DNA of 64,000 nt from Trypanosoma brucei (lineage: Eukaryota): the NCBI GenBank assembly GCA_000002445.1, contig CH464491.1, positions 640,001 through 704,000 on the forward strand, read 5' to 3'. Of this stretch, positions 11,906-43,619 are shown one piece after another. How positions within the stretch are numbered: position 1 is the stretch's first letter; each line of letters opens with the position of its first letter. The position numbers and the translations under genes are program-made. The notes under the pieces are model-generated. The model ran no database searches and was not told the DNA's origin. It was given only the letters and a program-made list of their open reading frames with translations.

Positions 11906-11910
<5 letters not shown>

Positions 11911-11939
<29 letters not shown>
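11911..11939. repeat. (TA)14 microsatellite
   Basis: Direct reading. Confidence 0.95.
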
Positions 11940-11941
<2 letters not shown>

Positions 11942-12835: not shown

Positions 12836-12856
12836 GGAGGAGGAGGAGGAGGAGGG
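12836..12856. repeat. (GGA)7 microsatellite
   Basis: Direct reading. Confidence 0.9.
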
Positions 12857-13466: not shown

Positions 13467-13493
13467 ATATATATATATATATATATATATATA
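13467..13493. repeat. (AT)13 microsatellite
   Basis: Direct reading. Confidence 0.95.
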
Positions 13494-13798
13494 CGCAAGT
13501 ACTCGCATCCATACGCACAGATGCGTGCATGTATTCATGAATAAATGATTATGTGCATGTGCATATTTGGGCGTTTGTTTCCCTTTTTTTTCTCTCTTTC
13601 CACCCTCCTTCCAATCAACACCTCCTGTTTCTTACGGGAGGAGGGAACGGGTCGGAAGCGCTGTGGTTTAGCCGTTTATAATTCCTTCCTTTTTTCTTTC
13701 CCTCTTCTTTGCGCGTCAGCCAGTTGGGAAGAAATATAATGGAAGTGAAGAGTGAAACGGTAATGGAATGCGTATTTCTGCTTGCGTTTATTTATATT

Positions 13799-13800
<2 letters not shown>

Positions 13801-13829
<29 letters not shown>
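13801..13829. repeat. (TA)14 microsatellite followed by a G11 run at 13866-13876
   Basis: Direct reading. Confidence 0.95.
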
Positions 13830-13833
<4 letters not shown>

Positions 13834-16010: not shown

Positions 16011-16608
16011 AGGGCACGAGGAGGGGGGGGGGGAAACGTGCAGTGGTAGTAGTCGTGTCATTTTTGGTAGTATCGATTAGGTTTCCGAGATGTATACATA
16101 TTTTCAGGTATGCACTCATATGTTGAAATGCCGCGTAAACCACATGTGCATTCCTTGCTGGAGCTTCAATATCTAGCGAAGGAGCTGTGTGGTATGGAGA
16201 CACATTTTGATTCCTTCACCACACACGTAGCGTGCTGCACAAAGTCGCCGGTGGTGTATGAGCTACGATTCCTTTCTCAGGGAAGTCGGACCATGAGACA
16301 CGAGTGGAGTTACTTATGATTTTGCTTGTATTTCCATTAGCCTCTAGTTTCCCACCTCTGTTTGGAATGTCAAAAACCAACTTCTGGTATGCTTTCCCCC
16401 CTCTCTTCCACACCTTCTCACGTGATCATTATCTTTCTTTATTTGCTCTCCCCCTTTTCTGTGCTCGCCAGAGGTTAAACTCTCTTTTAAGAAAGTGATC
16501 GGTTTTGTTTGTTGTTGTTTTCGAAGAAGGAAACAAAAAAAAAAAAAGAACGATCGGCGGTGGTATTGACGGTTGCACAGACAAAAAGGAAATAAAATAA
16601 ATAGCACC

Positions 16609-20344: not shown

Positions 20345-22072
20345 ATGCCCAACCCATACAGGAAAAACAAGGATACATCGCGTATACCGTGTGTCTACTT
20401 TAAAAGAGGGTCATGCGCGAACAAGCACTGCCCATTTCTTCATGTGCGTGGCGGTGAAAAAGTCGGACACGAACCTGGGAAAGCACCAGGGGATGTGGGG
20501 ACAAACCTTCTTTGTACGATGTTGAAGTTGGTGTTTGAGAAACAGCAGCAGCGGGTGTATAACGCGGAAACAGGGGTCTTGAACCTGACGCAGTTTAAGG
20601 AAATTCCTGACCTCACGGATGTGGCGGGATCCATCAACTTTAACACACAGGCTTTCTGCCAGGCATTGTGTTCGACAATAAAGTCGCTTATTGTGCCTCC
20701 TCCATCAGCAATTCAACTGAAAGGCAATGGCATATTGTCGGTGTCACATCTAGCGATGCAGTTGGAAAAGGCAGACCTTCATCTGACGCTTCGTGCCATT
20801 TCATTAGAAGCCAACCTAATCAAGTCGGTTGAGTCATTGCAAGAGTTGAAGAAATTCACCAACTTGCGGGAGATTGTACTGAGAGACAATCCTATCGCAA
20901 ATCGGAGCGACTATCGGACAACTATTAAGAAATTGATGCCGTCGTTAATTGGTTTAGATGGAGAGTCCATATGTGTGCCCCCTTTAAGTTTACCGTGGCC
21001 TCAGTTCTCTCCGACGGGATACAGTGAGGCGCAGAAGCATGTGCTGCAGTTCATACAATGCGGGTTGTTAAACCCACTGGAAGGCGACGGTGCTTCCGGA
21101 GTTGCACACGGTGTAGACGCTGTTTCGGACTTGTACGCGGCAAATGCGGTTTTGACCCTCTCCCTCTCTTCGCCAGAAGTTGCTGTAAGCACGCCCATGC
21201 GCACGATGAACGGTGCGGCGGGTGTGCCGCAACAGCGGAACGTAATCAGGGATATTGTGAGTCTTCGGTTAAAACAAACTGAAAGTAATCACAACCTTCT
21301 GCACGGTGTAAAGTCGACTGTTGTTGCGCTTGGTCGGACGAAGGTGTGTTCTCAGATGGAGCACTGGTTGTACCCAAAGACCTTTAGGGTTCATCATTAC
21401 CTCCATAGCAGCGCTAGCACCGTCTTTCTTGACAATTCGTACCTCACAGGCCCGTCGCCCACAGCGATGAAAGTACCCGTGACAATAGTGACACTCCATG
21501 GCACCATGACGTGGAACAACACCGGTGTACCGGGTGATGCGACAACTATTGGCCCAATGACCATTCGGCGCAACTTCACTCGTGTGTTAAGTGTTACACA
21601 AGGGGATGCGGGACGCTGGCTAATCACTAATGACATGGTGTCGTTGTATTTGACGCCGAGTGGGTCATCTGCATCGTCGAAAAGTGGCAACGGAGTGCCT
21701 GAAACGACTCAACTGAGCGAGTGCCGCATTCTGCTCGACCCACGCAGCGACCGTAGCCGTGCGGAGGTACTCAGCCGAAAGAAGGACGTACCGGTAGAGG
21801 TGATTATGGCATTGTGTCAACACGTTGGTAACGATGCGGAGTTATTTACCGTGTTGGATGATATCCGCGGCGTGCCACTCAGTGCCTTTGAACACTGTGC
21901 CAACCTAGCAGGGGAGAATATCATGGAAAGCATTCAGATGTGTCGTTTAGTGAATCTTTTCGGGATGGCACCACAAAATGCATTGGAGATGCTTAGGCAC
22001 AATAACGGTAACTGGAGTGATACTGTTGCTGCGGTTGCTGCTACCGCGCCTGTGGCGGCAGTCCCGCAGTGA
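20345..22072 (+). CDS. MEX67: mRNA export factor Mex67/NXF with N-terminal CCCH zinc finger
   Basis: N-terminal C-x7-C-x4-C-x3-H finger (CVYFKRGSCANKHCPFLH), followed by an LRR region (LREIVLRDNPI), an NTF2-like domain and a UBA-like C-terminus. The CCCH finger is the known peculiarity of kinetoplastid Mex67. Confidence 0.8.
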   Translation: MPNPYRKNKDTSRIPCVYFKRGSCANKHCPFLHVRGGEKVGHEPGKAPGDVGTNLLCTMLKLVFEKQQQRVYNAETGVLNLTQFKEIPDLTDVAGSINFNTQAFCQALCSTIKSLIVPPPSAIQLKGNGILSVSHLAMQLEKADLHLTLRAISLEANLIKSVESLQELKKFTNLREIVLRDNPIANRSDYRTTIKKLMPSLIGLDGESICVPPLSLPWPQFSPTGYSEAQKHVLQFIQCGLLNPLEGDGASGVAHGVDAVSDLYAANAVLTLSLSSPEVAVSTPMRTMNGAAGVPQQRNVIRDIVSLRLKQTESNHNLLHGVKSTVVALGRTKVCSQMEHWLYPKTFRVHHYLHSSASTVFLDNSYLTGPSPTAMKVPVTIVTLHGTMTWNNTGVPGDATTIGPMTIRRNFTRVLSVTQGDAGRWLITNDMVSLYLTPSGSSASSKSGNGVPETTQLSECRILLDPRSDRSRAEVLSRKKDVPVEVIMALCQHVGNDAELFTVLDDIRGVPLSAFEHCANLAGENIMESIQMCRLVNLFGMAPQNALEMLRHNNGNWSDTVAAVAATAPVAAVPQ

Positions 22073-27069: not shown

Positions 27070-27630
27070 GTGGAACTCAAGCGGAAATTTGACCTTCGTT
27101 TCATCGTGGCAGTAAATTCCTTTACGTCGGAGCATTCCTCCTCCATGGAGGCGTACGTCTATAACACTTTCTGGACTCGATTTGCGCTAAAGGAATATTC
27201 ACTCGACGATTTTGACTGCTACGAAAAGCACTGGACGGTTATGAATTACACCAACCCCGAGGCATTGCTTCAGTTGCATGACCATGACTTTGTGAAAGAG
27301 TTTAACGAGGAATATGCCTCGAGTGGTTACGGTGAAGCAGCATGGGAAAAAATTGCATATCCGAAGATTCTGAAAATGCTTCGTGAAGCATTTGGCATGG
27401 TGGTAACGAGGGGTGGGGATCACAGTCGATGCCGTGCGATGTATGGTGTGGATGTTATGCTACGGACGGAGCGCTGTGTTGAAACGGGCGCTTTGACACT
27501 TGAGCCTTCGTTACTCGAAATCACCTTCAGTCCGGACTGCCGTCGCGCCTGCAAATATCATCCAACGTTCTTCAATGACATTTTCCACACACTTTTCCTT
27601 AGGGATCCAACGAACATGACACCACTGTGA
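27070..27630 (+). pseudogene. Inverted partial duplicate of the 3' end (last ~184 codons) of the TTL gene at 41679-43619; gene fragment
   Basis: 100% amino-acid identity to the C-terminus of the 646-aa TTL (RKFDLRFIVAVNSFTSEHSS...TNMTPL). Nucleotide identity begins abruptly at 27079. An ATG (MELK) exists only in the unique junction sequence. Upstream sequence is unrelated to TTL. Confidence 0.65.
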
Positions 27631-27853
27631 GCTATTTCATTGGAAACATTTTTCTTCCATCATCATTTATGTTGCATGTGGATTTCCATCAGAACTTTGT
27701 CACAGAGTGGTGTTGCTTAACATCAATTTTGTGTGAACCCAGATATATATGCGTATGTATGTGAATGTGTGTGTTCCCTTATGCCTATGCTTCTACCCTT
27801 TTTCTTTTTCCTTTCAGTAATATCTCAGCTTTCAGGATTACAATCAATAAACA
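27079..27853. repeat. Outer inverted-repeat arm (left), ~99% identical to reverse complement of 41444-42230
   Basis: Direct comparison: coding part identical; the intergenic part shows one substitution and one small T-run indel. Confidence 0.85.
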
Positions 27854-28015
27854 AGCGGACAGAGAGGTGGCTCGGGAGGAAAGCCTTTGCGGACAGTGCG
27901 AATTTCTGATTTTCACGTAATCATTCTTCGGGGAGGGGGAGAGACTGTTATTTACTGTCTATATAAGCGTTGATCCCAAAGTAATAACAGTAAGAAACAT
28001 ATAAGATATATCATT

Positions 28016-28672
28016 ATGGGTTGTGGCGGTTCCAAACCTAACGCGGTAAGCAGAGATGTGGAGGAGAAGGCTCTGTATCTTCGTGGTATCAAAGAATCAA
28101 TCGATAAGGCAGAGGGAAACATGCTTGCCACTCTCCATGCCCTGCAGGCGTTGATGAGATCATATGAATCCACTTCATACTCATTTGTTGAGCTTGCACA
28201 CGGTACGGACGGCAATACATCATTGAAGGCGAAGACATTTGAGTCTGATATGCGGACACTAAAAGACAGTGGCATCATGCCGAAACTGCAAAAGGACCTC
28301 GGCCAGTCCGTCAGTTCCTTGGGAAAAGACATCAGGGCAAAACATGACAAAGCGAATGTGGTGTACAGAGAAATGACACAAGCCAATGACGCGTACTGCA
28401 AGTTGCGCGAGCGAGTTAACGGCATAGAGAAGAGTTACGCCAAAAAAAACAAGCCCGTAAGTGAGTGCCCTTCGTACACAAAGAATTGTAAGGAACGTGA
28501 CGTCTGCTTAGCCAGGTATGAAGGACTTAAAAAAGTTTTCCTGACGTTGGTGGAAGAGCTGAGGACTCTCATCCGTTCCTATGTGACTGCAGGGCTTACG
28601 CGATACGCCTTCTCTACTGCGGATTATGCGCAACAGTTGGTGAATAGTCTCCAGAAGTACAAATCCGAGTAA
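28016..28672 (+). CDS. Small dually acylated (MGCGGS N-myristoylation/palmitoylation motif) helical protein; possibly flabarin (flagellar BAR-like protein) family
   Basis: 218 aa with an N-terminal MGCGGSK (Gly2, Cys3) motif. Predicted all-helical/coiled-coil. Paralogous (about 45% identity) to the minus-strand ORF 40733-41401. Last gene of the plus-strand array. The flabarin assignment comes from recollection of a flabarin/flabarin-like pair next to TTL in T. brucei. Confidence 0.5.
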   Translation: MGCGGSKPNAVSRDVEEKALYLRGIKESIDKAEGNMLATLHALQALMRSYESTSYSFVELAHGTDGNTSLKAKTFESDMRTLKDSGIMPKLQKDLGQSVSSLGKDIRAKHDKANVVYREMTQANDAYCKLRERVNGIEKSYAKKNKPVSECPSYTKNCKERDVCLARYEGLKKVFLTLVEELRTLIRSYVTAGLTRYAFSTADYAQQLVNSLQKYKSE

Positions 28673-30011
28673 TTAGCGCAATGAGCAGAAACATGGACTT
28701 AAGATGCAGTTTTCAGACAGGCAATAAAAAGGGGGAAAGGGAAAAAGGTATACATTAAAAAAAAAAAGAGGAAAGGGGACGTGGGGACGGAAGAAACTGA
28801 TTTTATGTTCGGTTGGGATGGGCGGGTTCCATTCCAGTCCCCCCTAGTAGCGGTGAATTTTTTTTTTTTTTGGAGGAGGGGGGGGACGGGAAAATAAGTC
28901 GTTTAGGTGACAGGTGTGTGGACGAGCCGCCGTGCTTATCATTCACATTTTAAACACGGGTTCTGCCGCATTTAAGTTTCGTTTTGCTTCCGCTTTGGTG
29001 TTCTGAAGGTGATGTTTTTTTTTTCTTATATTTTGACTTATGCAATCGGGATCATTTCCTTTTTTGTTCTCGGTGTATGTGATTTTGTGTTTGGCTTCCT
29101 TTTTTTTTTTTTTTTTCTTTTTTTTTTTGGTGTTTCTTTTTCGAATATCTCTACCCCACTTTTTTTCTGTTTGACACATCGTTTAAGTTGGGCTGTGCGT
29201 TGATGATGAAAAATAGATGCTTACCGCTGCTCTTTCCGGTTTTTTTTTCAGCTCCAACGTTGCCGTTACTTGTTGTAGCATTTGTTCTATTATATTACTA
29301 GAGCTATGAATAGATAAGACATGGGAGTAATCTGCCTAATCTTTACTGTTTTGTTTTGTTTTGGTCCCTGAGTATTAGGCGTGCGTGTGTGCGTGCCCAC
29401 ATATGTATTTAAAAAAAAAAAATAGTAATGAAAGACCTACACCTGTTTGTTCCCTTTCCTCATTGTTTCCTCTTTTTTTTTTCTGAGGCACCTTACAAGG
29501 TTTATGCGAGGGGCAGGTTGTTCATTTCACACGAAAAATCGCTATTATATTAGTAAATAATGTTTGCTGTTTCCACCTCCTGGAAAAAAAAAAGGGAGGA
29601 AAAGATATATGTAACAAAATAAAGTAAGAAAATTAAAAAAAAAACAACCTTCCGAAAATACATACAGAACACGGAACATATCCGTCAGAGAGGAGCTCCA
29701 TTATTGGAACATTCTTTTTCTTGCTTTTTCGTTTATTGCAGTGCTGTTGTTCGACCGTTGCGAATAAAAGTGACTAAAAATATATTCTGTCTTCTTCCAA
29801 CATTTTTCTCGTCTTTCTTTTTTCATTCACATGGGGCACAACATGCTTTACCAACAGATGATATTTCGACGAATCAAAAGACAACAGCGCGTAAGGCACA
29901 TACAACGTTAAGGGCAAGAAAAAAAAAAGGGAGGGGGGGGGCGGAAAGTAAATAAATTGCGGCAGCATTAACCATTTAGCGGTTAAAAAGAAGGAAGTGA
30001 ATAATCAAAAA

Positions 30012-30036
30012 AATAATAATAATAATAATAATAATA
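30012..30036. repeat. (AAT)8 microsatellite; a similar (AAT)7 lies at 40105-40125 in the same orientation
   Basis: Direct reading. Confidence 0.9.
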
Positions 30037-30415
30037 AGTAAGGGGAATAAATATGGCATTGATATTAACAACAACAATAATATAATTATTAGTATTATTT
30101 GTGAGCCGCTGCGAAGCAGGTTTCTAAATATAAACTCGCCGTTTCCACGCCGAATTTTCACATGGTGCGCGGACTCATCCGAGGTGTACCCGTGAGGTGC
30201 GGTATTTGCCGTTTAAAACATCCCTCATGTTTCTTTCCCAACTCGTTAAAAAAAATATATATATATAGCCAATGGATTTGCGTAAACTTCTGCAGACATA
30301 TCGCTCACCGCCAAATAATACCGCGGTGCAATTTCTCATACACGTGACTTGTGCTGTCGGGGAAAAGACATTTTTTTATTTTTTTTTGCACACTTCGAAA
30401 AGAAAAAAAAATTTG

Positions 30416-32137
30416 CGTTACCCGCTACCGCCATTCACGGCGAGGAAGCTGAGTTTGCCAGAAGATCCGTTTTCTTATCCTTTTTATTTTCTTCCCCTTT
30501 TATGTAACTGTTGAAAAACTCATTGTGCCACCTTTGTTATTCTGCAGAACACCAATGCTTCATAAGTCGACTGGGACCTTTTAATTGCTTTTCGAAATAT
30601 GGTGACGTTTTGGTTTCGTTTGCAGCATTGGGGGAGTAGAATAATGGTCATTAACTGAGGGAAAGATGTTGACGCGCTTCTTATGTTCCCTTTGGGCGTA
30701 TACTGCATGGTGATGGGTTTCTTCTTGTTCCAACAACTTGGAGAGCTTTAGAACTCGTCGCACTAGCTTCAAAATTAATAAGTGCGTTTGTTTCCCTTAT
30801 CTGCGACTTTGTCCGCTAATTCATTTTCCTTCATGCCGCAACTAAAAAAAAAAACAAAAAAACAGTAAATTTTGATATCACCGCGTTGCTACTAATGAAC
30901 GTCGGAACTGACCACTATATAACACACACAAAAATATTCCATCTTCCACCCGATGTGGAAGATGCCTTAAGAGAAATAGTGCCTGCCAATGCCTGCGATG
31001 TTATCCACGACGAAGGTTTGTCCTTCATTATTTATTTATTTATTTTAGTAGCCTATTCAACCATACCCCCACCACCACCAATTCCGCACGATAGCTGCTG
31101 CCCAACCTCCCAGCGCCCCTATGCTGTTTTATCCTTTTTTCCCCACCCGATTAAGGCGATGGCGGTCACACCCGGCGAAATCCTTTTCTCAATCCACCTT
31201 CCCCTTTGCAATGTGTGGGTCCTCTTCCCGCCGTCCAGTTCGTTAGCCTTCAAGTCTTCCAGTGCAAATGTTTTGATATAAATTATTGGGATGGGAGGCT
31301 CACCATGTTTTCCTCACGGAAAGGGAAGCCAGTTATCCGTTTCGAACCGCCATCTTTCCGCTGAACTGAGCCGCTTGTGAAGTGTTTTTTTTTTTTGTTG
31401 CAGGGATATGGCCGCATCCACGTATCGGGAAACTGGCCCTCTTTGGCCCTGAGTGTTCCGCAATATTCGATCATCCCTTTGCGCACCACCTTCCCCGCAA
31501 ATTCCCCAGCCGCGGTTCTTCAGCTGTGCTTGCTTATTTGGGCCGAGTGGAAAACCACCCGGCACCTGCACCATAACATATTCTCATTCGAACGGGGCCC
31601 AAACAGAAGGTTCGCGGGGTTTTGCACCCTTGGTTCCTACTGAGCCGGCGCTGTCACCCTTCGTCTTCAGTAAACTTGCCTTTTCACACTAAGCCGTTTG
31701 TTTCGTGTGTTGCGATGTCACTTTTATTGATTGGGAAGCGGGTGCCAGAAGGTTTGGGGGTTTTGCTTCTCTTACCCGCCCCTTCCCGCCACCACGGGAT
31801 ACGGTGAGTTCCGAGCGCACACGCCAAGTGCCGTATAATGTTGCATTCCCCAGTTGCCGGTTCTGTGGCCCGCCCCTCTGACCGCTGGAAAACGTGGTTG
31901 AGTTGTCGCTGCAGTTAATTTTCAGAGACTTCTACATTCCCGCAAGTGCATTCGATTACTTTTTTTCTTTTGTTAATCGGTGTGCTATTCGGCAATGTTG
32001 GTCAGTGAGAGCCCTTTGGCAAAGAAGATAGGGGCAATCCCAGGGCAGGTATGCGCCGTATGGAATTACACTAATCGTCGCAAGTTTCAACGATAACATT
32101 ATCAAGAATTATGAACTGAGAACCAACTTTGTATATT
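30416..32137. repeat. Inner inverted-repeat arm (left), 1.72 kb, ~99% identical to reverse complement of 37741-39462
   Basis: Mirror-image ORF pairs in the six-frame track (30886-31281+ vs 38597-38992-; 31622-31807+ vs 38071-38256-; 30581-30772- vs 39106-39297+). Nucleotide comparison shows only scattered substitutions and homopolymer-length differences. Confidence 0.9.
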
Positions 32138-32167
32138 TTGGAGGTGCGCAGGCAACGTTGAGTGAAT

Positions 32168-32179
32168 TATTCAGGGGAA
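32168..32179. repeat. Target-site duplication (TATTCAGGGGAA), 3' side of ingi
   Basis: Identical 12-mer at 37434-37445 immediately flanking the other end of the element. Confidence 0.8.
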
Positions 32180-32452
32180 TTTTTTTTTTTTGGAATTTTC
32201 TTCGTGCCTTCGTGGGAGTTTCCCCCCACTGGCGCGGCCATCAGCCATCACCGTAGAGCCCTGAGATGCTATCGGTCTGGCGACTGTGGCAGAGTCTCCC
32301 TTTTTTATTCATCCTAACACTCCCTCTATAATTTTTGTTGTAGCTCCGCAGTTGAACGGAATACAGCAGATGGGGCAAGAGGCCCCCCACTCCGGACTCT
32401 CCAAAAGATGTCAATTAGCAATCCTTTTGTTTTGATTTTTGTTATTCGTTTA

Positions 32453-34162
32453 TTATTCTCTCCCCCTCTTTCTGTTTCTGTTGCTTGTTGACTGCATACC
32501 TCCTCTGTCTCTGAGGGTGTCTGGACTATTCCTGCGTCCGGTGCTTTTCCTGCTGGCTCCACACTCGGCAATAAGGGGGGAAGTTGCAGAAGGGAGAGTG
32601 GGTTGTATGACTGTTACCTTAGGTGAGGACTTCACCTGTGGCCGGCTCCGTTCAACCGCAATGAGAAACTGCGCCAGCCTTTTGGAGAAACATACATCCT
32701 GCACACACACACCTTCTACCGCAAACCTGACACGTAACTCCTTCAAACCGGGACAGCTCATCAAGTGCAGCGACGTTTCTTCGCAGTCGCCGCGTTGGCT
32801 GGTAACAGCGCGCTCTACCTTCATACCGTGCATCTTCTTTTGATGTAGGGTGAGGCCAGTTTTGCTAGCACACTGCCTTCCGCATGTCGGGCACACCAAC
32901 ATGGATGCTTTTGTATGCGGGGAATCAGTGGCACAAAATTTTGTGCTTTTGCTGCATTTAAGCTCGACTCCCTCACCTTTGTGGAAAGCCTTGCAGTGTC
33001 GGATGAGGGAGTCCCTGCAACTGAGCACTTTTTGGCACACACCACACTGCACCTCGCCTTTCCCCGGGACGTCAACGTTTCCCTCACGGGCACGCTTACG
33101 AGGGAATTGCACCAACACCACGGTACCGTCCTCCGTCACTATGCTTTTATGTTTGAATTTCTTGTGTAGTGTCAGGGAAGAACGTGTACCGAAGCTCGCC
33201 TCGCACAGGTCACATTGAAACGGCAGCTTCCGTGTATCCTGAGAGGCTGGCGCTGCTGGGGCTCTACCATCTCCTTGCAATGAGTCCTCGTTCTCTCGCC
33301 CCCTTTTCACGCGGCAACTACCGCTGCCTATGCCATGTATTGTTCTAAGGTGGTGTAGTAGTCGGCCTGGCACTGCGAATTTGGAGGCACAGATGGTACA
33401 ATGAAGCACCTGCGGTCTCATCGGGACTCGTGTGCTCGATGGTAGAGGAACGATCGCCACCACTGGAGGGGGCTCCGGGGGGATATCCACTGCAGGTGTT
33501 GCATCGCCGTATTTGATCCTCCGGAGGGCATCAGCTCGCACAAAGCCATGTTTGTTTACCATGTGCGTTACAGCACTCGAGCGGCATTGGTATGTGGCAT
33601 CACATTCCGTACATTTGGTCGGTTCGGAGGTTCTCTGAAGAGTGCGTGTCGCAACAGTTGGGGCCGTTTGTATTGTTGGCCCTATCGCTGCATGTTGCGG
33701 GTTACACCATCGGCACTGTGGAGGCACACTCGGGTTGATCTTTCGCAACATCCATCCATAGTGTCTTGAAGACCCAACCCGAAAGCGTGCCAGTGCCGTT
33801 TCTTCTTCCCTCGTCAGTTCTTCTTTATGTTTTGTTGGAAAGTGGTTGCCCGTGATACCAAACCTATGAGTGTTCTCATGGACTTCTTCCGACCTAAGCA
33901 CTCGCTTCGCATAAGCAATGATGTCGGGGATCCATGTATCTCGCAACTGTGGTAAATCTGCGGCCTTTTTGGCCATTTCATCGCAAACCTCATTCCGTTT
34001 CACGCCACAATGGCCAAACACAAATTGCAGTCGGATACGTATCTTCCTTCTCTGAACTTGAAGCAGAAGCCTCCATAGTCGTCTTAGAATTGGGTCCGTT
34101 ACGGCTAGGGGGCCTGTCTGCAGTGCTGTTAACATTGATAGAGAGTCAGAGAAGATGGACAA
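32453..34162 (-). pseudogene. ingi ORF, 3' portion (RNase H remainder and C2H2 zinc-finger domain), different frame from the 5' portion
   Basis: C2H2 fingers (CTICASKFAVPGRLLHHLRTIHG; CDLCEASFGTRSSLTLHKKFKH; CGVCQKVLSCRDSLIRHCKAFH; CPTCGRQCASKTGLTLHQKKMH). The frame differs from 34288-37425 by +1. Confidence 0.8.
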
Positions 34163-34287
34163 CCTGCTCGGTGTGCTTCTGTATGCCAGAAGCCATTTCA
34201 GCAGCCGTTGCAGTCCTATCTCTAATGCTACGCATTCCGCTCTGTAACTGCATGAGAGTTCCCCTGCTCCGGTCTTGGGTGCACAAA

Positions 34288-37200
34288 TCAGCGCTTGTTT
34301 CTATAGAGCAGGGCAGCTGCTCCGGACTTCTCACCGAGGGACACGGATCCATCAGTCCACAATTCGTAGTGCTCTCGCCGCGGTGGCTCCTTCCCCCTCC
34401 GTGCAAAATGCCGTGCAATCCACTTTTCGGAAGCCTCCCTTTTGACATCGTCAGGGTCATCAGCGCACACAGGCTTTATCTGCGTGTGAAATAGTGGTCG
34501 GCAGCTGTGGCGGAGCGTCGATGTCTCTAGTGGGTGCTCGCGTGGCTCAATGCGGAGGTGGGGGTAGAACCGCATGATGCGGGAATGTGAGGCTCTGTCT
34601 GGGTGTTTGCTGTGGTATACTTCTTCAGCACTGCGCCGCAAACATCCGCCTCGTGACTCACACATCAGCATGAATTTCATGCTGCGCACAAGAGTGGTCG
34701 TCTTGAGTGGCAGGAGGTTTGCTTCCAGCAGAGAGTCCTCTTTGCGTGTCCCATGGGGTATGCCAGCTATGATGCAACTGGCTTTGTGTTGTGCTGCTGC
34801 AAGGAGATCGCGACTTCGTTCCGAAGCGTCCCAGTACCATACCTCAATGCCATACATGGTGTGTGCCTGTACGAGTGCTAGATAAAAAGCTCTCAGCACT
34901 TGTCGTCTTGGCCCCCATGTAGAAGCTGAGATGGCTGCTATCTGCAGTAGTCTGAAGTCCATCTTGCGTCTCGTTTCGGTCGTATGTGTTGCCATCCCTT
35001 GCAGACACTGGAATGTTACTCCTAGAAGCTTCGGTGTCCTGTCAGCTCCTATTCTTTCGCCGTCCAGTTGTAATGTAAGGGGGTGGCGCTCTATACACCC
35101 GAAGAGTTTGCACTTTGTTTTCGCTACGTTGACAGACATGAAATACTCTTTTGACCACTGTAACACCACGTTGAGACCGCATTGTAGTGTGTGGTTGATG
35201 ACATCCCTCTCGGTGTGCCTCGCAAGTAGCGTTAGGTCGTCTGCAAAGAATCCGTGCTGCAGTAACGGCACTTCTACAAGCCGCTGGCTCAACGAGTTCA
35301 TGACAATAATGAACATGATTGGGCCAAGGACAGTTCCTTGTGGCACTCCTCGCTCAAATGTTCTGCTTCTGGAAAGCTTCTCCTTGAATCTCACTCTGCC
35401 AGTTCGGTTACTCAGAAATGATACGCACCACTTCACAATGTGGGGTGATACCTTCATTCTGTGCATTTCCCTCGCAATTCTGTTGTGTTCTACTGTATCA
35501 AATGCCTTCTCGTAGTCAACGAATATAGCACCCGTACGAGATTGGTGCGTGGGACGGCAGAGGGCAGCGCGGACGTGCAGGAGTTGTTCGAGCGTTGAGC
35601 ATCCGCGGCGAAAGCCTGATTGCTGCGCCGTCAGCTGGGACTCAACAGTGTCTCTAAGCCTCGTGGCAATTATGCGCTCCATGACTTTGCATAGACAGCT
35701 CGTGAGCGTCACAGGCCTGTAAGAATCGAGGTCCTCCGCCTTTTTTCCGGCCTTCAGGATGGGGATGATAACACCAATCTTCCATGCAGGCGGCACGACT
35801 CCCGTTCGTAGGCTCTCATTGAATAGCCTCAGAACAACATTCAGCGCTGTTCTGCCGAGGTGTTGTAGTGCCTCGTTGTGTAAGCAATCAGGTCCGGCTG
35901 CGGATCCACTCGGTAGCAGTTTGATCGATCTCCGTAGTTCAGCCATCGTGATGGGACTGAACTCACTCGCTATCGTCTTTATTGGTGCCGGTGGGTGTGA
36001 GTCGGGGTGTCTTCTTGCGCGGGACGAGTACAGTTTAATGAACCTCTCAGCTTGACAGTAGTCCGTGATGGCCGCGTTATCAACAAGTACAGCCGGTGTG
36101 GTTAGTGGTCGTGGCGCATATACCTTCTTGACAATGTGCCAACTGCAGCGGTCTGACACCGCAAGTCTGGAGCATAGCGTGCTCCATCTCTTCTTTGTGG
36201 TACGGTCCAGGATCTGCTTACGCGTGGCTACCAACTTTTCCCTTCGGTGGGAGGGTCCGCATCCAGCGATCTCTTCATCGAGTTTCGCGAGCTCAGGTGT
36301 CCAATGTGGTGGCGTTGCTCTGCAGCCACGGGGGACGGAGACCTTCGTCGCAATGCGGATGGCGGAGCTCAATTTCTGTTCCAGGGTGTTGACGTTCTTC
36401 TCTCTACCAATTTTCCTGCAGAGCTCGTCAACCTTGAGACGGAAATTCCTCCAGTTAGCTTTTAGCCATGCGTACATGGGCTTTCGAAGCCGCGGGCAAC
36501 TCAGTGCATCTGTGTCGTCTCCAACGATAACGTCGAAAAATATGTGATGGTGATCGCTATCGGGAGAATACAGCGATGTCCACGTGTACACTGTGCAATT
36601 CCTTGACAGTGTCACATCAGGGGTGGACTCCCCGTGGTGGCGCGCGTACCTGGTGCACTCACCAGTGTTGCAGACCAGAAACTGGTTGTCAATGCACCAC
36701 TGTGTGAGGGTTTCACCCTTGGTATTTGGTGGGCTCGCGCGATCCCATGCCAACGCGTGTGCGTTAGCGTCTGCACCGATGAGCTGGGCACCGTCAGTCG
36801 TCAGAAGCGTATCTAGGTCAGTTGCCGTGAAGGTGTGTTTTGGTGGGATGTATGCCGACGTGACAGTCAGCGCCGTTCCACGTGCAAGGTGAATTGTTGC
36901 ATGCACTTGTTCAATGCGACCAATAACGGCCATACCGGTCTCGACTGGTAGGTCCTCCCTCACTAGTATTGATACACCACCTCCTTTGCAGTTACGAGCT
37001 ATTCCGTAATGTTGGTAGCCAGCAACGCTAAAGCAAGCCGCCTCTCCAGGCGTCATCCTTGTCTCGCTCAACAGACAAAAGGCGATCCGCTCATCAACAA
37101 GGGTTTTGTGGAGTGCTAATCTCTTTCCTTGAGATAGCCCGACGCAGTTCCACTGCATCCCGCGCAACGACGGGCCGGGATTCTCTTCCACATCACCGGA

Positions 37201-37425
37201 CAGCAGCATCTTAGTGCGGATGATACTGCTGATGGCACGCTGGCACGTGCCCAGGGACCGACAAATGAAAGACGGTGTCCCAGCAAGACGCTGCTGATCC
37301 CTGTGCTGTATGATGCCGTAGCCGGAGCACAGCAGTGTTCCCCATGAAAGGAACGCTGCTGGCTCTTGGCTTCCCCCGATGATACGGGGTACTGGACCCT
37401 GGCACCACGTTGAGGTGGCCGGCAT
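34288..37425 (-). pseudogene. ingi ORF, 5' portion (2A peptide, APE-like endonuclease, reverse transcriptase, start of RNase H); frame broken near 34162-34288
   Basis: ATG at element position 9. RT motifs (VTLTSCLCKVMERII; FVDYEKAFDTV; FFADDLTLLA). RNase H DGS motif at the C-terminal end (ELWTDGSVSLGEKSGAAALLY). Confidence 0.8.
37161..37184 (-). other. 2A-like co-translational 'self-cleaving' peptide motif (DVEENPGP) near the N-terminus of the ingi ORF
   Basis: Translation SGDVEENPG|PS, the canonical D-x-E-x-NPGP 2A signature. Confidence 0.75.
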
Positions 37426-37433
37426 CGCCAGGG

Positions 37434-37445
37434 TATTCAGGGGAA
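37434..37445. repeat. Target-site duplication (TATTCAGGGGAA), 5' side of ingi
   Basis: See 32168-32179. Confidence 0.8.
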
Positions 37446-37740
37446 CTGCGCCCGCAGAAAATAATACACACAAATGGGAACTGCCCGGTCTTGGCAGAAG
37501 AACTTAAACACTTCCCGCTATCACTTTAAATACTGCGAGCCACGCTGTCACAACGAGACAACGGGGGCTCCAACCCAAACGATCCAGGGCCGGAGTTACC
37601 GCGCAATTGATTGGTGTAATAAACGGGGGAGGGCCAACCAGAGGAGGCAGCGGTAATATTTACTAAATGCAAAATGGTATTAATCCAGTGGGTCATTGAT
37701 GCGGCATTGCGGCGCTAAAGGGCTGCGCAGCGGGCCCCTT

Positions 37741-39462
37741 AATATACAAAGTTGGTTCTCAGTTCATAATTCTTGATAATGTTATCGTTGAAACTTGCGA
37801 CGATTAGTGTAATTCCATACGGCGCATACCTGCCCTGGGATTGCCCCTATCTTCTTTGCCAAAGGGCTCTCACTGACCAACATTGCCGAATAGCACACCG
37901 ATTAACAAAAGAAAAAAAGTAATCGAATGCACTTGCGGGAATGTAGAAGTCTCTGAAAATTAACTGCAGCGACAACTCAACCACGTTTTCCAGCGGTCAG
38001 AGGGGCGGGCCACAGAACCGGCAACTGGGGAATGCAACATTATACGGCACTTGGCGTGTGCGCTCGGAACTCACCGTATCCCGTGGTGGCGGGAAGGGGC
38101 GGGTAAGAGAAGCAAAACCCCCAAACCTTCTGGCACCCGCTTCCCAATCAATAAAAGTGACATCGCAACACACGAAACAAACGGCTTAGTGTGAAAAGGC
38201 AAGTTTACTGAAGACGAAGGGTGACAGCGCCGGCTCAGTAGGAACCAAGGGTGCAAAACCCCGCGAACCTTCTGTTTGGGCCCCGTTCGAATGAGAATAT
38301 GTTATGGTGCAGGTGCCGGGTGGTTTTCCACTCGGCCCAAATAAGCAAGCACAGCTGAAGAACCGCGGCTGGGGAATTTGCGGGGAAGGTGGTGCGCAAA
38401 GGGATGATCGAATATTGCGGAACACTCGGGGCCAAAGAGGGCCAGTTTCCCGATACGTGGATGCGGCCATATCCCTGCAACAACAAAAAAAAACACTTCA
38501 CAAGCGGCCCAGTTCAGCGGAAAGATGGCGGTTCGAAACGGACAACTGGCTTCCCTTTCCGTGAGGAAAACATGGTGAGCCTCCCATCCCAATAATTTAT
38601 ATCAAAACATTTGCACTGGAAGACTTGAAGGCTAACGAACTGGACGGCGGGAAGAGGACCCACACATTGCAAAGGGGAAGGTGGATTGGGAAAAGGATTT
38701 CGCTGGGTGTGACCGCCATCGCCTTAATCGGGTGGGGAAAAAAGGATAAAACAGCATAGGGGCGCTGGGAGGTTGGGCAGCAGCTATCGTGCGGAATTGG
38801 TGGTGGTGGGGGTATGGTTGAATAGGCTACTAAAATAAATAAATAAATAATGAAGGACAAACCTTCGTCGTGGATAACATCGCAGGCATTGGCAGGCACT
38901 ATTTCTCTTAAGGCATCTTCCACATCGGGTGGAAGATGGAATATTTTTGTGTGTGTTATATAGTGGTCAGTTCCGACGTTCATTAGTAGCAACGCGGTGA
39001 TATCAAAATTTACTGTTTTTTTGTTTTTTTTTTTAGTTGCGGCATGGAGGAAAATGAATTAGCGGACGAAGTCGCAGATAAGAGAAACAAACGCACTTAT
39101 TAATTTTGAAGCTAGTGCGACGAGTTCTAAAGCTCTCCAAGTTGTTGGAACAAGAAGAAACCCATCACCATGCAGTATACGCCCAAAGGGAACATAAGAA
39201 GCGCGTCAACATCTTTCCCTCAGTTAATGACCATTATCCTACTCCCCCAATGTTGCAAACGAAACCAAAACGTCACCATATTTCGAAAAGCAATTAAAAG
39301 GTCCCAGTCGCCTTATGAAGCATTGGTGTTCTGCAGAATAACAAAGGTGGCACAATGAGTTTTTCAACAGTTACATAAAAGGGGAAGAAAATAAAAAGGA
39401 TAAGAAAACGGATCTTCTGGCAAACTCAGCTTCCTCGCCGTGAATGGCGGTAGCGGGTAACG
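37741..39462. repeat. Inner inverted-repeat arm (right)
   Basis: Reverse complement of 30416-32137 at ~99% identity. Confidence 0.9.
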
Positions 39463-40732
39463 TCATGTATAACTATAAAAAAATATATGAAATGTCAATA
39501 CTTTTTGTAATCCCTATGTCTCCTCCTCGTGCTGTTGCCCGCCAAAAAGTGATACTCTTTCATTAGAGTGCGTCAATTACCTTAAAGTGTCGCTCAATCT
39601 GCAATTCCCTATATTCAGTGGGAAAGGCGAAGGAAAGTAATGTTGCTTCTATGCTTCACTTGCCGGCACCGATGTGCAGTTGCTACTAGAGACAAAAAGA
39701 AATCCCCCTACTACGCTAAATAGAGAAGAACCAAGCAGAGAACGAAACCAGAAAGGAGGGTTCATTGGATAGAACGAAGCAAATATACGGAACAAAGAAT
39801 GAAATTTTTAAAAAAGGTGAAACTTTGTTGTTGGTGTTGATCATCACTCATTCATTTACCTCACTATTCGGTTGTCCTCCAGTGTTTCGGCCGCATGGCT
39901 CCTCATGAAGAAACAACCTGACAGGAAGGTTAAGTTCAACAAAATGCCCCTGTCACAAGCGTTTGGGGGGCAATGAGGTGACGTTTTATTACAAAAGTAA
40001 AAAAGAATTCTGACGCTCATTACAGAAATACGAAACAAAATTTAATGCCACCGTTTGTACTTACTGGAAATGTGGTGCGCACTTTGTGCTGCGGCCTTTA
40101 AAAAAATAATAATAATAATAATAATCAAGTAAACAGAAAATAGTATCGATCGTGGGAGGGAAAAAGGTATCAGAGCGAATGCACGGGCGACTATATATGT
40201 ATACAAATTCATATAAGCATATATATATGTGCACCTTCTGCCTCTAATGCATTTAAGTTCATGCATGGGTTTAGAAAGGAACGACGACAGAGGAGTGAAT
40301 ATTCTCACGATACATATGCGTATGCCTCCTCCGCAAACAGTTCCCCTTTCCCCATTTCTTATCTTCGATTTCTGCGTCGAAGTTGCTTTACCCCTGCTGA
40401 AACAATTCGAGTAAAGAACAAACAGTATCACACACAAAAAAAGTAAAAGAGTAAAAGATACATTTTAAAACAAAACAGTGAAGACAAAAAAAGCTTTCTA
40501 ACGCTAACAAAACTGAAGAAAGAAACTCCTGAGGGATATTGGTCAATCCTCCCTATTTGCGGTATTTTTTTTTCTCCCTACTTATATTTATTTACGCTCC
40601 ACTTTCTTTCTTTTCTCCCCGCCTCGCCAAGGAAACCTGCAACTACAGATCAGTTTGAAATATTTTAATTTCACATTCCTCGTTCCGCACGTTGTGGGGT
40701 TCCTACCTCTTTTTCGTTGACGCGCCCATGCG

Positions 40733-41401
40733 TTACGTCGAACTCGGAACAACTTTAAACTTCGCGAGCTCAGTGGCCATTTGCTGGGCAACAATGGCGC
40801 TGCACGCCGCATATTTTGGTAGTGCCGACCCAATGAATACCGGAATGAGACTCGCAAGTTGTTTAATCTCCGCGTTGAGAGTTTTCTTGGCCTGATCATA
40901 CTTTGCGAAGGCGGCATCACGGTCCTTGGATTCTTTTATGAACGATTTACTTTCCGTGAGGGGTTTGTCCTTCTTTGCGTAACTCTTCTCAGTTTCCTCC
41001 ACGTTATACTTGTGTTTGTCGTATGCGTGCCTGAGGGCCACGGCATTGTTGTAAAGTCGCATAACCTTTTCCTGCTGTATTTTGATGGGACGACCTGCTT
41101 CCTTCACATTGGTTACGAAGTCTTGCTGCAGGGTCGAAAGCATCGGGCCAATCTTAAGTTTCCGCACTTCCCCTTCGAAACTCACTGCCAACGAAGCCGC
41201 TTGCCCATCCGTGCCGTGTGCGAACTCCACAAATGATTGCGATGTGTTCTCATACGCCTTTATCAAGGACTGGAACGCCTGAGTTGTGGCGGTGACATTC
41301 ACCTCAAATTTTTCTATCACCTTCCCCAGACCTCGGATATACGCTCCCTTGTCGTCGAGATCCTTATCAACTGTTTCGGGGATGTTGCTGCAGCAGGGCA
41401 T
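40733..41401 (-). CDS. Flabarin-like paralogue of 28016-28672 (N-terminus MPCCSN: Gly2 lost, Cys3/Cys4 retained)
   Basis: 222 aa, collinear with the plus-strand paralogue (FVEFAHGTDGQ / FVELAHGTDGN; EKSYAKKDKP / EKSYAKKNKP). Last gene of the minus-strand array. Confidence 0.5.
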   Translation of the reverse strand: MPCCSNIPETVDKDLDDKGAYIRGLGKVIEKFEVNVTATTQAFQSLIKAYENTSQSFVEFAHGTDGQAASLAVSFEGEVRKLKIGPMLSTLQQDFVTNVKEAGRPIKIQQEKVMRLYNNAVALRHAYDKHKYNVEETEKSYAKKDKPLTESKSFIKESKDRDAAFAKYDQAKKTLNAEIKQLASLIPVFIGSALPKYAACSAIVAQQMATELAKFKVVPSST

Positions 41402-41443
41402 AATTGCTCCTTTTCTTCTCTGTCTTGCTTACCGTGTCTTGCT

Positions 41444-42230
41444 TCTCGACAATGTTTATTGATTGTAATCCTGAAAGCTGAGATATTACTGAAAGGAAAA
41501 GAAAAAAAAAGGGTAGAAGCATAGGCATAAGGGAACACACACATTCACATACATACGCATATATATCTGGGTTCACACAAAACTGATGTTAAGCAACACC
41601 ACTCTGTGACAAAGTTCTGATGGAAATCCACATGCAACATAAATGATGATGGAAGAAAAATGTTTCCAATGAAATAGCTCACAGTGGTGTCATGTTCGTT
41701 GGATCCCTAAGGAAAAGTGTGTGGAAAATATCATTGAAGAACGTTGGATGATATTTGCAGGCGCGACGGCAGTCCGGACTGAAGGTGATTTCGAGTAACG
41801 AAGGCTCAAGTGTCAAAGCGCCCGTTTCAACACAGCGCTCCGTCCGTAGCATAACATCCACACCATACATCGCACGGCATCGACTGTGATCCCCACCCCT
41901 CGTTACCACCATGCCAAATGCTTCACGAAGCATTTTCAGAATCTTCGGATATGCAATTTTTTCCCATGCTGCTTCACCGTAACCACTCGAGGCATATTCC
42001 TCGTTAAACTCTTTCACAAAGTCATGGTCATGCAACTGAAGCAATGCCTCGGGGTTGGTGTAATTCATAACCGTCCAGTGCTTTTCGTAGCAGTCAAAAT
42101 CGTCGAGTGAATATTCCTTTAGCGCAAATCGAGTCCAGAAAGTGTTATAGACGTACGCCTCCATGGAGGAGGAATGCTCCGACGTAAAGGAATTTACTGC
42201 CACGATGAAACGAAGGTCAAATTTCCGCTT
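41444..42230. repeat. Outer inverted-repeat arm (right), covering the TTL 3' coding end plus about 280 bp downstream
   Basis: Reverse complement of 27079-27853. Confidence 0.85.
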
Positions 42231-43619
42231 GCGCAGCGTCGCTGTGTTGGCGATATACTTACAGATTACCTTAGGTCCTGTTTCCACGGCTCTCAGCAGT
42301 TCAGTGAGGTTGGACGAAAGCGTCATGTCGATGCTTCGTGCCAAATTGGTGGGTTTGCTAATCCATAAATTTGTCCCGTCGTTGCTGCGCAACTTGCCGA
42401 TATCCTCATAGGTAACCAATGGGTCTGTATCAATCTTCTTGTCTAATGCGGCCTTGCGCACGATGAAGTCACCAATTAGTTCCTTTAGCTGTGTCGTCGA
42501 ATCGTAACTTGTTTGATACCAGTCGACGTAACCATAGGTCTCCTGAATTAGTCGTAACAGCCCCTGTTTACTTGTGAACTCAGACTCCTCAGGGAACTGC
42601 GAAATATATTGTGCGTGCCCATAGTCGTTTAAACCCTCGATAGAATGGTGAACAACCCATACGATGTGCGCTTCCTGCGGCAGATCGACCACCACAAAGT
42701 GATTCGCATCAGTGAGATTTTGTGAAAGCTGTTGACTGTCCGTGAAAACACGGAGCGGGCCACTCGGACACCTCTCCACCGGCGCTAGCGCACTCTGTTC
42801 CCGTTGGGCACGTCTTCCAGGAACGCTTTCCAAACGTTTCACCAGACGTCGCCACGCTTCTACGCAAAGAAGTTGGGCGGAGCGGTAGGGATCTTCTTCT
42901 GTTTCTTCCTCGTGTCGTGTGTTGTATATAAGCGACAGTATTTCCTTCCCGCTTGTCGCTTCGAGCGTTGATGCCGCCCGCCTCGTGGCAACTTCTTCCT
43001 CTTCCATGTCCTCTACGCACCACATCGCTGAGAACACACCGCCCTTTTCCGGGAAACAAATGGGTATCGGTTCCAACTTCATATTCGCTTTCTCATTCAC
43101 TACTGTTGTTATGGCGCTGCCCACTTCGTCATGGATAAACCAGTAGCTTTCGTACTGGGAATCATCTCCGTCCGCCGATGTCGGAAGGCGATACGAACCC
43201 ACCTTGTTCCACATGTGGTCAAATATCAGTTGCGCTCCATGTCTGTTATCGGCGCCCGAAAGGTTCACGGCCAAAACACGACCCAACCGCGTGCGGAGGG
43301 CCTCATTTGCTTCCAGATGAGCGCGAAAATCTCGCAGGCGGAAGGTACAGCAGTGATCAATAAGCCAAATATCGTCATTAGCCTTTAGATTCTTACTCGC
43401 CACAAGAACATAGTTACCAGCAGTTTCCGAGGACTGGTCCTCCGCGTCGACTTCATCCTCGTCCTCACGCGCTACAACCGCCAGCGAGAAAGAGGTTCCA
43501 GCGTCAAAGACGTCATTGACCAACTTTTCAAATAACGACCGCTGCAAGTGCTGAGGCACGCTGTGAACGACGAACCAGTCCGCTAGGACTCTCGAGAATG
43601 CTTCAAAGTCTTTCATCAT
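41679..43619 (-). CDS. TTL: Tubulin-tyrosine-ligase-like protein (TTL/TTLL family ATP-grasp)
   Basis: 646 aa. The C-terminal ~350 aa have the TTL-type ATP-grasp signature layout (ICKYIANTATLRKRKFDLRFIVAV...; GGDHSRCRAMYGVDVMLRTE). The N-terminal extension is unique. Confidence 0.65.
   Translation of the reverse strand: MMKDFEAFSRVLADWFVVHSVPQHLQRSLFEKLVNDVFDAGTSFSLAVVAREDEDEVDAEDQSSETAGNYVLVASKNLKANDDIWLIDHCCTFRLRDFRAHLEANEALRTRLGRVLAVNLSGADNRHGAQLIFDHMWNKVGSYRLPTSADGDDSQYESYWFIHDEVGSAITTVVNEKANMKLEPIPICFPEKGGVFSAMWCVEDMEEEEVATRRAASTLEATSGKEILSLIYNTRHEEETEEDPYRSAQLLCVEAWRRLVKRLESVPGRRAQREQSALAPVERCPSGPLRVFTDSQQLSQNLTDANHFVVVDLPQEAHIVWVVHHSIEGLNDYGHAQYISQFPEESEFTSKQGLLRLIQETYGYVDWYQTSYDSTTQLKELIGDFIVRKAALDKKIDTDPLVTYEDIGKLRSNDGTNLWISKPTNLARSIDMTLSSNLTELLRAVETGPKVICKYIANTATLRKRKFDLRFIVAVNSFTSEHSSSMEAYVYNTFWTRFALKEYSLDDFDCYEKHWTVMNYTNPEALLQLHDHDFVKEFNEEYASSGYGEAAWEKIAYPKILKMLREAFGMVVTRGGDHSRCRAMYGVDVMLRTERCVETGALTLEPSLLEITFSPDCRRACKYHPTFFNDIFHTLFLRDPTNMTPL

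Follow-up and report, generated by a model that had tools for sequence, protein, structure and literature searches.

A nested palindrome around the diverged Flabarin and FlabarinL genes at a convergent strand switch on Trypanosoma brucei chromosome 11, with arms probably kept alike by gene conversion

Seven long inverted repeats, IR1 to IR7, have been catalogued in the chromosome cores of Trypanosoma brucei; their arms measure 0.4-10 kb and are 99-100% identical, some at least lie in convergence zones of polymerase II, and their high arm identity was already remarked on as unexplained when they were described (Tschudi et al., 2012; PMC3447711). All seven, together with all 49 convergent units surveyed, yield small interfering RNAs (siRNAs) that are bound to AGO1 and are mostly DCL2-dependent (PMC3447711). 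In this study, we analysed a 64,000-nucleotide stretch of the T. brucei contig CH464491.1 (referred to as the window; coordinates are window positions unless stated otherwise) that holds a palindrome of this kind, built around the genes Flabarin and FlabarinL at a convergent strand-switch region (cSSR) of chromosome 11. Its two repeat pairs sit within a housekeeping gene array and have the size and identity of the class "IR" of Tschudi et al., that is, they are inverted, at least ~400 bp long, at least 99% identical and located in the core of a megabase chromosome. The locus is on neither of the lists of that study, in which IR7, at 4,219-4,231 kb, is the sole chromosome 11 repeat (PMC3447711). 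Identity with IR7 was considered and rejected because IR7 lies at 4.22 Mb and the present locus at ~0.67 Mb, and because S2 of Reynolds (2016), in which the IR7 coordinates fall within a listed cSSR, holds both sites separately (PMC4721609). The locus is an uncatalogued eighth long inverted repeat of T. brucei with a ninth pair nested around it, and the T. brucei inverted-repeat catalogue is incomplete. It differs from IR1-IR7 in being nested as two pairs and in enclosing an old, diverged and stage-specific gene pair, with siRNA output that is a candidate property.

Palindromes of the primate sex chromosomes (P1-P8 on the human Y, and those on the X) maintain >99.9% arm identity by arm-to-arm conversion and are marked by sharp boundaries, persistence across species and spacer inversion polymorphism, with the genes in their arms homogenised. 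The trypanosome locus is ~1,000 times smaller and lies at a termination zone, and here it is the gene units that form an island escaping conversion, with 38% identity between them. The plastid inverted repeat, in which the arms are corrected against each other and the intervening segment occurs in both orientations, belongs to a multi-copy organelle and carries rRNA operons, whereas the flip at the present locus is known only from comparing two assemblies. The two genes themselves, their 38% identity, their origin by duplication in African trypanosomes, their stage specificity and the ~12 kb between them are already published (PMC5078803, PMC3785460). FlabarinL (Tb927.11.2400) is specific to the bloodstream form and dispensable in culture (PMC5078803), and Flabarin (Tb927.11.2410) is specific to the procyclic form (PMC5078803, PMC3785460). 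These papers describe the intervening DNA as non-coding only and leave the repeats, the TTL fragment and the ingi retroposon unmentioned. The locus is unusual in its nesting, in holding an island of selected divergence within a palindrome, and in that T. vivax has a concertedly evolving palindrome where the same two gene arrays converge.

Self-comparison of the window by two methods, with the edges printed in register, returned only two long inverted matches, an inner and an outer pair that are nested (O I ... I' O') and have sharp edges, which answers the dot-plot check proposed in a preliminary description of the locus. The inner pair is as given there: 30416-32137 (left copy, plus strand) is the reverse complement of 37741-39462 (right copy, minus strand) over 1,722 bp, with 12 substitutions and no gaps (99.30% identity), and the left copy is non-coding with 47% GC. 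These arms are 5,603 bp apart, and the spacer measures 337 bp once the ingi is removed, close to the ~340 bp first estimated. The outer pair, 27078-27853 (776 bp, plus strand) against 42231-41453, was also recognised correctly in the preliminary description, as was its coverage of the last 184 codons of TTL and the 3' flank, but it differs by 3 substitutions and one 3-bp indel (99.2% identity) rather than by one of each, and its coordinates had been placed 1-9 bp off. Its right copy (41453-42231, minus strand) is the source and comprises the 184 TTL codons, stop included, with 226 bp of 3' flank; its left copy carries the 3' third of TTL and the TTL-Flabarin intergenic region to a position between the PGK-like gene and FlabarinL. 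At all four arm edges the identity drops from ~100% to random within 1-2 bases, and the inner pair continues past its inner edge in a degenerate extension of 14-18 bp. A hidden gene, transposable element or RNA in the arms is ruled out by the searches made: a scan of the whole window returned no tRNA or Rfam family anywhere in it, the largest open reading frame (ORF) of the inner arms had no Pfam match, and tblastx and blastn of the inner arms were empty against the ingi and the T. cruzi, T. vivax, T. melophagium, T. theileri and Leptomonas loci.

Inverted repeats are a classic source of misassembly, and a related assembly, that of T. equiperdum IVM-t1, shows a suspiciously perfect 4.5-kb palindrome. 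A misjoined or collapsed contig had been named from the start as a possible refutation. Both repeat pairs occur with near-identical edges in T. b. gambiense DAL972 and in GCA_003543875.1, which we take to be T. equiperdum IVM-t1. Contig CZPT02001083.1 of T. equiperdum OVI (2,619 bp) corresponds to window 27822-30447, that is, to the FlabarinL island with 32 bp of each repeat, and breaks at both repeat edges, which is where a short-read assembly is expected to break; in Logan, the contigs of other samples are interrupted at these edges too. The arms of the two pairs also hold 12 and 3 real differences and adjoin different unique sequence. Because both pairs recur in two other assemblies and the contig of a third breaks at their edges, the palindrome is not an assembly artefact, and with recurrence across independent Sanger, short-read and hybrid assemblies we give the artefact reading practically no credence. 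The same breakage bears on the gene content of T. equiperdum, from which FlabarinL was reported to be missing (PMC5078803). OVI has an intact FlabarinL, identical to the window copy, on its 2.6-kb orphan contig, and the gene was thus reported absent in error, probably because the flanking repeats had hidden it.

By Pfam and homology, the gene order across the region is Mex67, a PGK-like protein that carries a cyclic-nucleotide-binding domain, the TTL fragment, a 218-aa protein, the strand switch, a 222-aa protein, TTL, and a dynein heavy chain of 4,307 aa of the intraflagellar-transport type (DHC2.2). The 218-aa protein (FlabarinL) and the PGK-like protein are identical to T. brucei TREU927 entries, and the locus is that of T. 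brucei chromosome 11 with the order PGK-like, TTL fragment, FlabarinL, convergent strand switch, Flabarin, TTL and DHC2.2. The FlabarinL coding sequence occupies 28016-28672 on the plus strand (218 aa) and that of Flabarin 40733-41401 on the minus strand (222 aa), and the 12,060 bp between them fit the published distance of ~12 kb, which makes the source of the window TREU927 or a strain very near it. The plus-strand genes end at 28672 and the minus-strand genes run from 40733, so that gene orientation bears out the convergent strand switch; the GC skew changes sign across the region as well. The last genes of two polycistronic units thus face each other, and the convergence of PGK-like against TTL and DHC2.2 is kept in T. 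cruzi and Leptomonas.

The flabarin genes are mirror-image paralogues with the coordinates and orientation first described, but their gap-free alignment gives 38% amino-acid identity, not the ~45% estimated then, and ~52-57% identity in DNA. They agree at 33% of third codon positions, where base composition alone predicts 25.5%, and at only 5 of the 23 four-fold sites under identical residues, so that silent sites are saturated. The segments downstream of the two genes, 28673-30415 (1.74 kb) and 39463-40732 (1.27 kb), show no detectable similarity beyond low-complexity matches, in line with the unrelated sequence first noted there. In T. cruzi and Leptomonas pyrrhocoris, the PGK-like gene is followed by one Flabarin, which faces TTL and the dynein heavy chain, with no TTL fragment and no inverted repeat at either locus; this layout makes the convergence point ancient and places the ancestral flabarin on the PGK-like side. 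T. vivax has a 242-aa paralogue 527 bp downstream of the PGK-like gene and a 237-aa paralogue downstream of TTL. A neighbour-joining tree groups the four African sequences in one clade (95% bootstrap) and, within it, FlabarinL with the PGK-side copy of T. vivax (79% bootstrap), and this result agrees with the published phylogeny (PMC5078803). Tree and synteny together place the inverted flabarin duplication across the switch point before the split of T. brucei and T. vivax, with each copy remaining on its own side since then. An exchange of Flabarin and FlabarinL between the two units by recombination in the outer arms is unneeded, since T. vivax has the same side assignment and there is no swap to explain. 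A staggered-break inversion was rejected too because it needs interleaved pairs (X Y' ... X' Y) and the pairs here are nested. In T. theileri and T. melophagium synteny is broken and no flabarin gene lies within 10 kb of the PGK-like gene or TTL; GP63 (Peptidase_M8) genes come after the PGK-like gene in this T. theileri group.

T. vivax lacks a TTL fragment between its PGK-like gene and the paralogue. In T. brucei the corresponding distance is 1,304 bp, which becomes 528 bp once the 776 bp of the outer arm are subtracted, as compared with 527 bp in T. vivax. For these reasons the outer pair looks like a separate, later insertion in the T. brucei lineage. The preliminary description had proposed a single old inverted duplication with homogenised flanks and, as its alternative, two duplication events. 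The comparison with T. vivax and T. cruzi that it called for divides the answer: the first proposal stands for the gene pair, which is one old inverted duplication, and for ongoing conversion, while the outer pair, absent from T. vivax, is the younger and separate event of the second. T. vivax has a palindrome of its own here, without the outer pair, and T. cruzi has no repeat.

On T. vivax contig SOPI01000099.1, an inverted match of at least 5,407 bp lies between the two paralogues (native positions 150794-156200 and 169343-174748), a length that is a lower bound as the match reaches the end of the compared locus. The arms start 4.6 kb downstream of the PGK-side paralogue and 1.09 kb downstream of the TTL-side paralogue, the outer edge of the palindrome is sharp, and a second haplotype (SOPI01000175.1 and SOPI01000119.1) has the same arrangement. 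When the four arms of the two haplotypes were aligned, the arms of the first haplotype showed no substitution in 5,406 bp and those of the second differed at 38 sites (0.7%), against 177-178 differences (3.3%) for any arm of one haplotype compared with any arm of the other. With 159 sites concerted within haplotypes and none separating left from right arms, this is the signature expected of concerted evolution through arm exchange, and it holds even if SOPI01000175.1 and SOPI01000119.1 belong to different chromosomes. Each T. vivax arm contains an ORF resembling ISG65/75 (Pfam E=9e-22; 14387-15478 of the extracted locus); the T. brucei arms contain none, nor any remnant of this gene or of the 386-aa gene of T. 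vivax, and no sequence similarity was detectable between the central arms of the two species. With no sequence relation between the two sets of arms, it is plausible rather than proven that the central arms have persisted since the original duplication.

For T. brucei, we aligned seven inner-arm sequences from four assemblies (the window, DAL972, IVM-t1 and OVI). All 12 differences between the window arms are private to the left arm and none to the right, and they fall within 885 bp (arm positions 152-1036), a clustering for which we estimate a scan-statistic probability of ~0.004. The right arm of the window is 1-7 substitutions away from the DAL972, IVM-t1 and OVI arms. The left arm of DAL972 differs from the window right arm by 3 substitutions and from the window left arm, its own orthologue, by 15. 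Between window/OVI on the one hand and DAL972/IVM-t1 on the other, both arms have changed together at 3 substitutions (303, 1471 and 1529) and 2-3 indels, and across these strains no site in the inner arms is arm-specific. This absence of arm-specific sites, combined with several sites changed on both arms between strains, indicates homogenisation by arm-to-arm gene conversion. In the outer arms, shared polymorphisms are shuffled between arms and strains. Both in T. vivax and in T. brucei, the arms within one chromosome are more alike than orthologous or allelic arms of different genomes, as read from draft assemblies.

The assemblies also differ in structure around the repeats. The inner arms of DAL972 and IVM-t1 reach 18 bp further into the spacer, where the window has a degenerate version of the same sequence. 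The DAL972 spacer is inverted relative to the window, IVM-t1 and OVI, and the adjoining DAL972 arm contains a 144-N gap. The left outer arm starts, in the window, with 19 bp (27078-27096) in whose place DAL972 has an unrelated-looking 17-bp string (9063-9081 of the extracted locus), and IVM-t1 matches the window; this replacement could reflect a different conversion end-point or a complex mutation. In IVM-t1 (CM010682.1), everything on the left from outer arm to inner arm duplicates the right side: arms of 4.5 kb are 99.9% identical, and a second Flabarin stands in place of FlabarinL and its downstream sequence (9175-13671 against 13978-18476 of the extracted locus). These arms differ by one substitution and four single-base indels, three of them in homopolymer runs, and the assembly was made from ~2.4x PacBio and MiSeq reads. 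The structure is exactly the product expected of a conversion tract anchored in both repeat pairs, and a wrong path through the assembly graph would give the same. In view of the low coverage, the homopolymer indels and the chance of such a graph mistake we did not accept IVM-t1 as proof of island conversion, and that the replacement is real seems to us doubtful, if well within reach. The suggestion that the site is recombinogenic finds support at the assembly level in the presence and absence of the ingi, the DAL972 spacer flip, the edge shifts of 18-19 bp and the FlabarinL replacement of IVM-t1.

The spacer is now split by the ingi into a short part (32138-32179), which includes the left target-site duplication TATTCAGGGGAA (32168-32179), and a long part (37434-37740), which includes the right one (37434-37445). 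The element itself, a non-LTR (long terminal repeat) retroposon on the minus strand at 32180-37433, measures 5,254 bp and has domains for a reverse transcriptase (RVT_1, E=9e-43), an endonuclease, an RNase H and zinc fingers. It has the features of the ingi family (~5.2 kb, the four domains with an endonuclease of the apurinic type, poly(A) and a 12-bp duplication), with a 12-T tail representing the poly(A) and the perfect 12-bp duplication TATTCAGGGGAA at both ends. The site is empty and clean, with the 337-bp spacer uninterrupted, in DAL972 and IVM-t1, and OVI shares the insertion since its contig extends 28 bp into the 5' end of the ingi. The intact target-site duplication and the empty sites in two other assemblies mark the insertion, by these sequence features, as recent, polymorphic between strains and of the TREU927/OVI lineage. 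The reading frame of the ingi is broken at 34162-34288, which leaves ORFs of 1,061 and 569 codons and makes this a degenerate copy incapable of autonomous movement. Retroelement sequence is found in the same zone downstream of TTL in four species: besides T. brucei, T. melophagium has an ingi-like element at 57-62% amino-acid identity (15204-18342 of the extracted locus), T. cruzi has ORFs with motifs resembling reverse transcriptase and RNase H, judged by eye (13243-14755), and T. vivax has an ingi-like fragment (21703-21945). This recurrence suggests a long-standing safe harbour for retroelements or a preferred target.

The explanation that we favour, and consider likely, is that of a nested palindrome at an ancient cSSR that began as an old inverted gene duplication, whose arms are kept alike by conversion and to which the outer pair was added later. 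The ancestral layout would have been the one still found in T. cruzi and Leptomonas, with PGK-like and Flabarin on one side of the switch point and TTL and DHC2.2 on the other, and flabarin would have been duplicated in inverted orientation across that point before T. brucei and T. vivax split. The two transcribed units would then have diverged to saturation, with the PGK-side copy becoming the bloodstream-form FlabarinL and the TTL-side copy remaining the procyclic-form Flabarin, and selection presumably removes conversions that overwrite one copy with the other. Meanwhile the non-coding central arms are held at ~99-100% identity by repeated intrachromosomal gene conversion, as the site patterns show at the assembly level. 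The T. brucei lineage would later have gained the outer pair when the final third of TTL and the TTL-Flabarin intergenic region were copied to the mirror position upstream of FlabarinL, and this pair also appears to be undergoing homogenisation. The ingi insertion into the 337-bp spacer would be a recent event of the TREU927/OVI lineage. The spacer can apparently be flipped by recombination between arms, going by the DAL972 assembly, and an island between the pairs might in principle be overwritten in this way, going by that of IVM-t1. If polymerase II ran on beyond the last poly(A) sites, the transcript would be a fold-back RNA of 1.7 kb, which nuclear DCL2 could process into siRNAs as at the seven catalogued repeats.

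The published small-RNA count does not inform this last step. As at the cSSR siRNA loci described previously (PMC3447711, PMC4721609), two polycistronic units converge here. S2 of Reynolds (2016) includes a cSSR on chromosome 11 at 669,438-679,992, in the same coordinate frame as the IR7 site (PMC4721609), which fits the locus by position (660-669 kb in DAL972) and by length. It has a small-RNA count of 3,229 reads per million (RPM) with no significant change in the H3.V knockout (PMC4721609). Among the values in that paper, cSSRs with one ingi have 3,010-3,658 RPM, and two sites that presumably carry two ingi copies have 5,776 and 6,441 RPM. The count at our locus probably consists of multi-mapped ingi reads, as it falls inside the band of every one-ingi cSSR, and it is for the same reason uninformative as evidence for siRNAs from the arms or from convergent transcription. 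The Reynolds 2016 supplements gave no match to the neighbouring genes, and Zheng 2013 holds no locus-level data. For a 942-nt section in which the spacer is flanked by the two arm ends, a perfect hairpin is predicted at -722 kcal/mol (z = -67), and read-through from either unit would, by this predicted fold-back of the inner arms, supply a Dicer substrate. On the precedent of the catalogued repeats and convergent units, we judge siRNA output from the inner arms likely, a little less firmly than the explanation set out above. An outer-arm hairpin, which the preliminary description had included, is unlikely, as the transcript would have to read through all 15 kb of the termination zone.

Several points weigh against our explanation. 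The concerted sites in T. brucei are few, and draft assemblies could have merged near-identical arms; DAL972 has its 144-N gap in one arm, and the PacBio coverage of IVM-t1 is only ~2.4x. The divergence between the window arms (0.4-0.7%) is similar to that between strains (~0.8%), and a fairly recent origin of the arms on the T. brucei stem with only limited conversion is possible. The palindromes of T. brucei and T. vivax may have separate origins, their arms being unrelated and the ISG65/75-like ORF of the T. vivax arms being absent from those of T. brucei; no mechanism accounts for the arrival of the outer block at its mirror position; and the published small-RNA count of this cSSR is indistinguishable from ingi background. 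The main rival holds that independent, recent segmental inverted duplications occurred at a cSSR prone to fold-back or template-switch events, with separate and recent origins for the inner pair, the outer pair and the T. vivax palindrome around an old gene pair, that arm identity mostly reflects youth, and that conversion was a minor later effect. The absence of the outer pair from T. vivax, the unrelated T. vivax arms with their ISG-like gene, the sharpness of every arm edge and the resemblance of arm divergence to between-strain divergence all agree with it, and the retroelements gathered at the same cSSR in four species suggest a permissive, break-prone zone. Recurrent duplication could be how the present arms arose. 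Youth alone, however, does not explain the T. vivax figures of 0-0.7% within against 3.3% between haplotypes with 159 concerted and 0 arm-specific sites, nor a DAL972 left arm that is nearer to the window right arm than to the window left arm, and it leaves to coincidence that both pairs lie in mirror symmetry about an old mirror gene pair. We regard this alternative as unlikely, though deserving serious weight.

It is also conceivable that selection for pairing keeps the arms identical, with the palindrome serving to supply a hairpin precursor of siRNAs, to terminate polymerase II or to block replication forks. The predicted fold-back is extremely stable, and a palindrome marks this cSSR both in T. 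brucei and in T. vivax, which are competent for RNA interference (RNAi), whereas none occurs in T. cruzi, which is RNAi-negative. Leptomonas has RNAi genes as well, however, and no palindrome here. Primary sequence is conserved neither between species nor between the T. vivax haplotypes (3.3%), and it is arm-to-arm identity alone that is kept, as conversion would yield. The ingi, moreover, enlarges the loop from 337 nt to 5.6 kb with no visible consequence in TREU927 and OVI. Selection had been raised as an idea for the seven catalogued inverted repeats, and the dcl2 knockout caused no mRNA changes at the two convergent units tested (Tschudi et al., PMC3447711). We saw no evidence for siRNA production as a selected function and find this explanation very improbable. 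A bolder version, in which the palindrome has been a conserved working part of the termination zone since before the T. brucei and T. vivax split, feeding nuclear RNAi or stopping polymerase II, with the flabarin pair a cassette replaceable by recombination and the IVM-t1 replacement real, strikes us as improbable, though less so than the simple selection idea.

Within the palindrome conversion and selection can coexist over a few kilobases, with stage-specific mRNA units diverged and the DNA on both sides of them homogenised. The left divergence island (27854-30415, plus strand) comprises the remainder of the FlabarinL 5' untranslated region (UTR), the coding sequence and 1.74 kb downstream, and has a counterpart only through the weakly similar coding sequence; the right island (39463-41452, minus strand) comprises the remainder of the Flabarin 5' UTR, the coding sequence and 1.27 kb downstream. 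Trans-splicing in trypanosomes is signalled by a polypyrimidine tract followed by AG. A tract of this kind with three AG dinucleotides, read from the sequence, lies at 27796-27835 on the plus strand, in the outer arm just before its inner edge. It may be a shared splice-acceptor region that serves FlabarinL, and its mirror at ~41471-41513 would serve Flabarin. The diverged island begins 18-37 bp past the tract and its AGs and ends at the start of the inner arm, from which we infer that the island roughly corresponds to a mature-mRNA unit (5' UTR, coding sequence and 3' UTR).

The outer arm also contains the 3' third of the full-length TTL gene (41679-43619, minus strand), a TTLL12-like gene with SET-like and TTL domains (Pfam TTL E=2e-40, SET_TTL E=1.1e-11) and with orthologues across trypanosomatids. 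The left copy leaves an open C-terminal TTL fragment at 27070-27630 on the plus strand (Pfam TTL E=1.5e-25), with 186 codons from a GTG or 161 aa from the first ATG, that differs from TTL at one of 553 coding bases and is called as a 161-aa gene in DAL972 and IVM-t1. It is probably a pseudogene kept intact through conversion from the real TTL. Reagents directed against the 3' third of TTL also match this truncated second copy.

Tschudi et al. (2012) left open why long inverted repeats are near-identical, and for the case described here arm conversion is enough. The natural variants, namely spacers with and without the ingi, two spacer orientations, edge differences of 18-19 bp and a possible island-replacement allele, make the identity question experimentally tractable. 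The locus lends itself to testing what keeps the inverted repeats of trypanosomes identical and whether such repeats have a role in termination or RNAi; short-read assemblies break or are mis-traversed at it. Elsewhere in the window, an AT-rich stretch at ~11.1-15.3 kb (36-39% GC, no ORF of 150 aa or more) contains a short imperfect inverted repeat of 66 bp at 86% identity (13428-13491 and 13801-13862), accompanied by AT/TA microsatellites.

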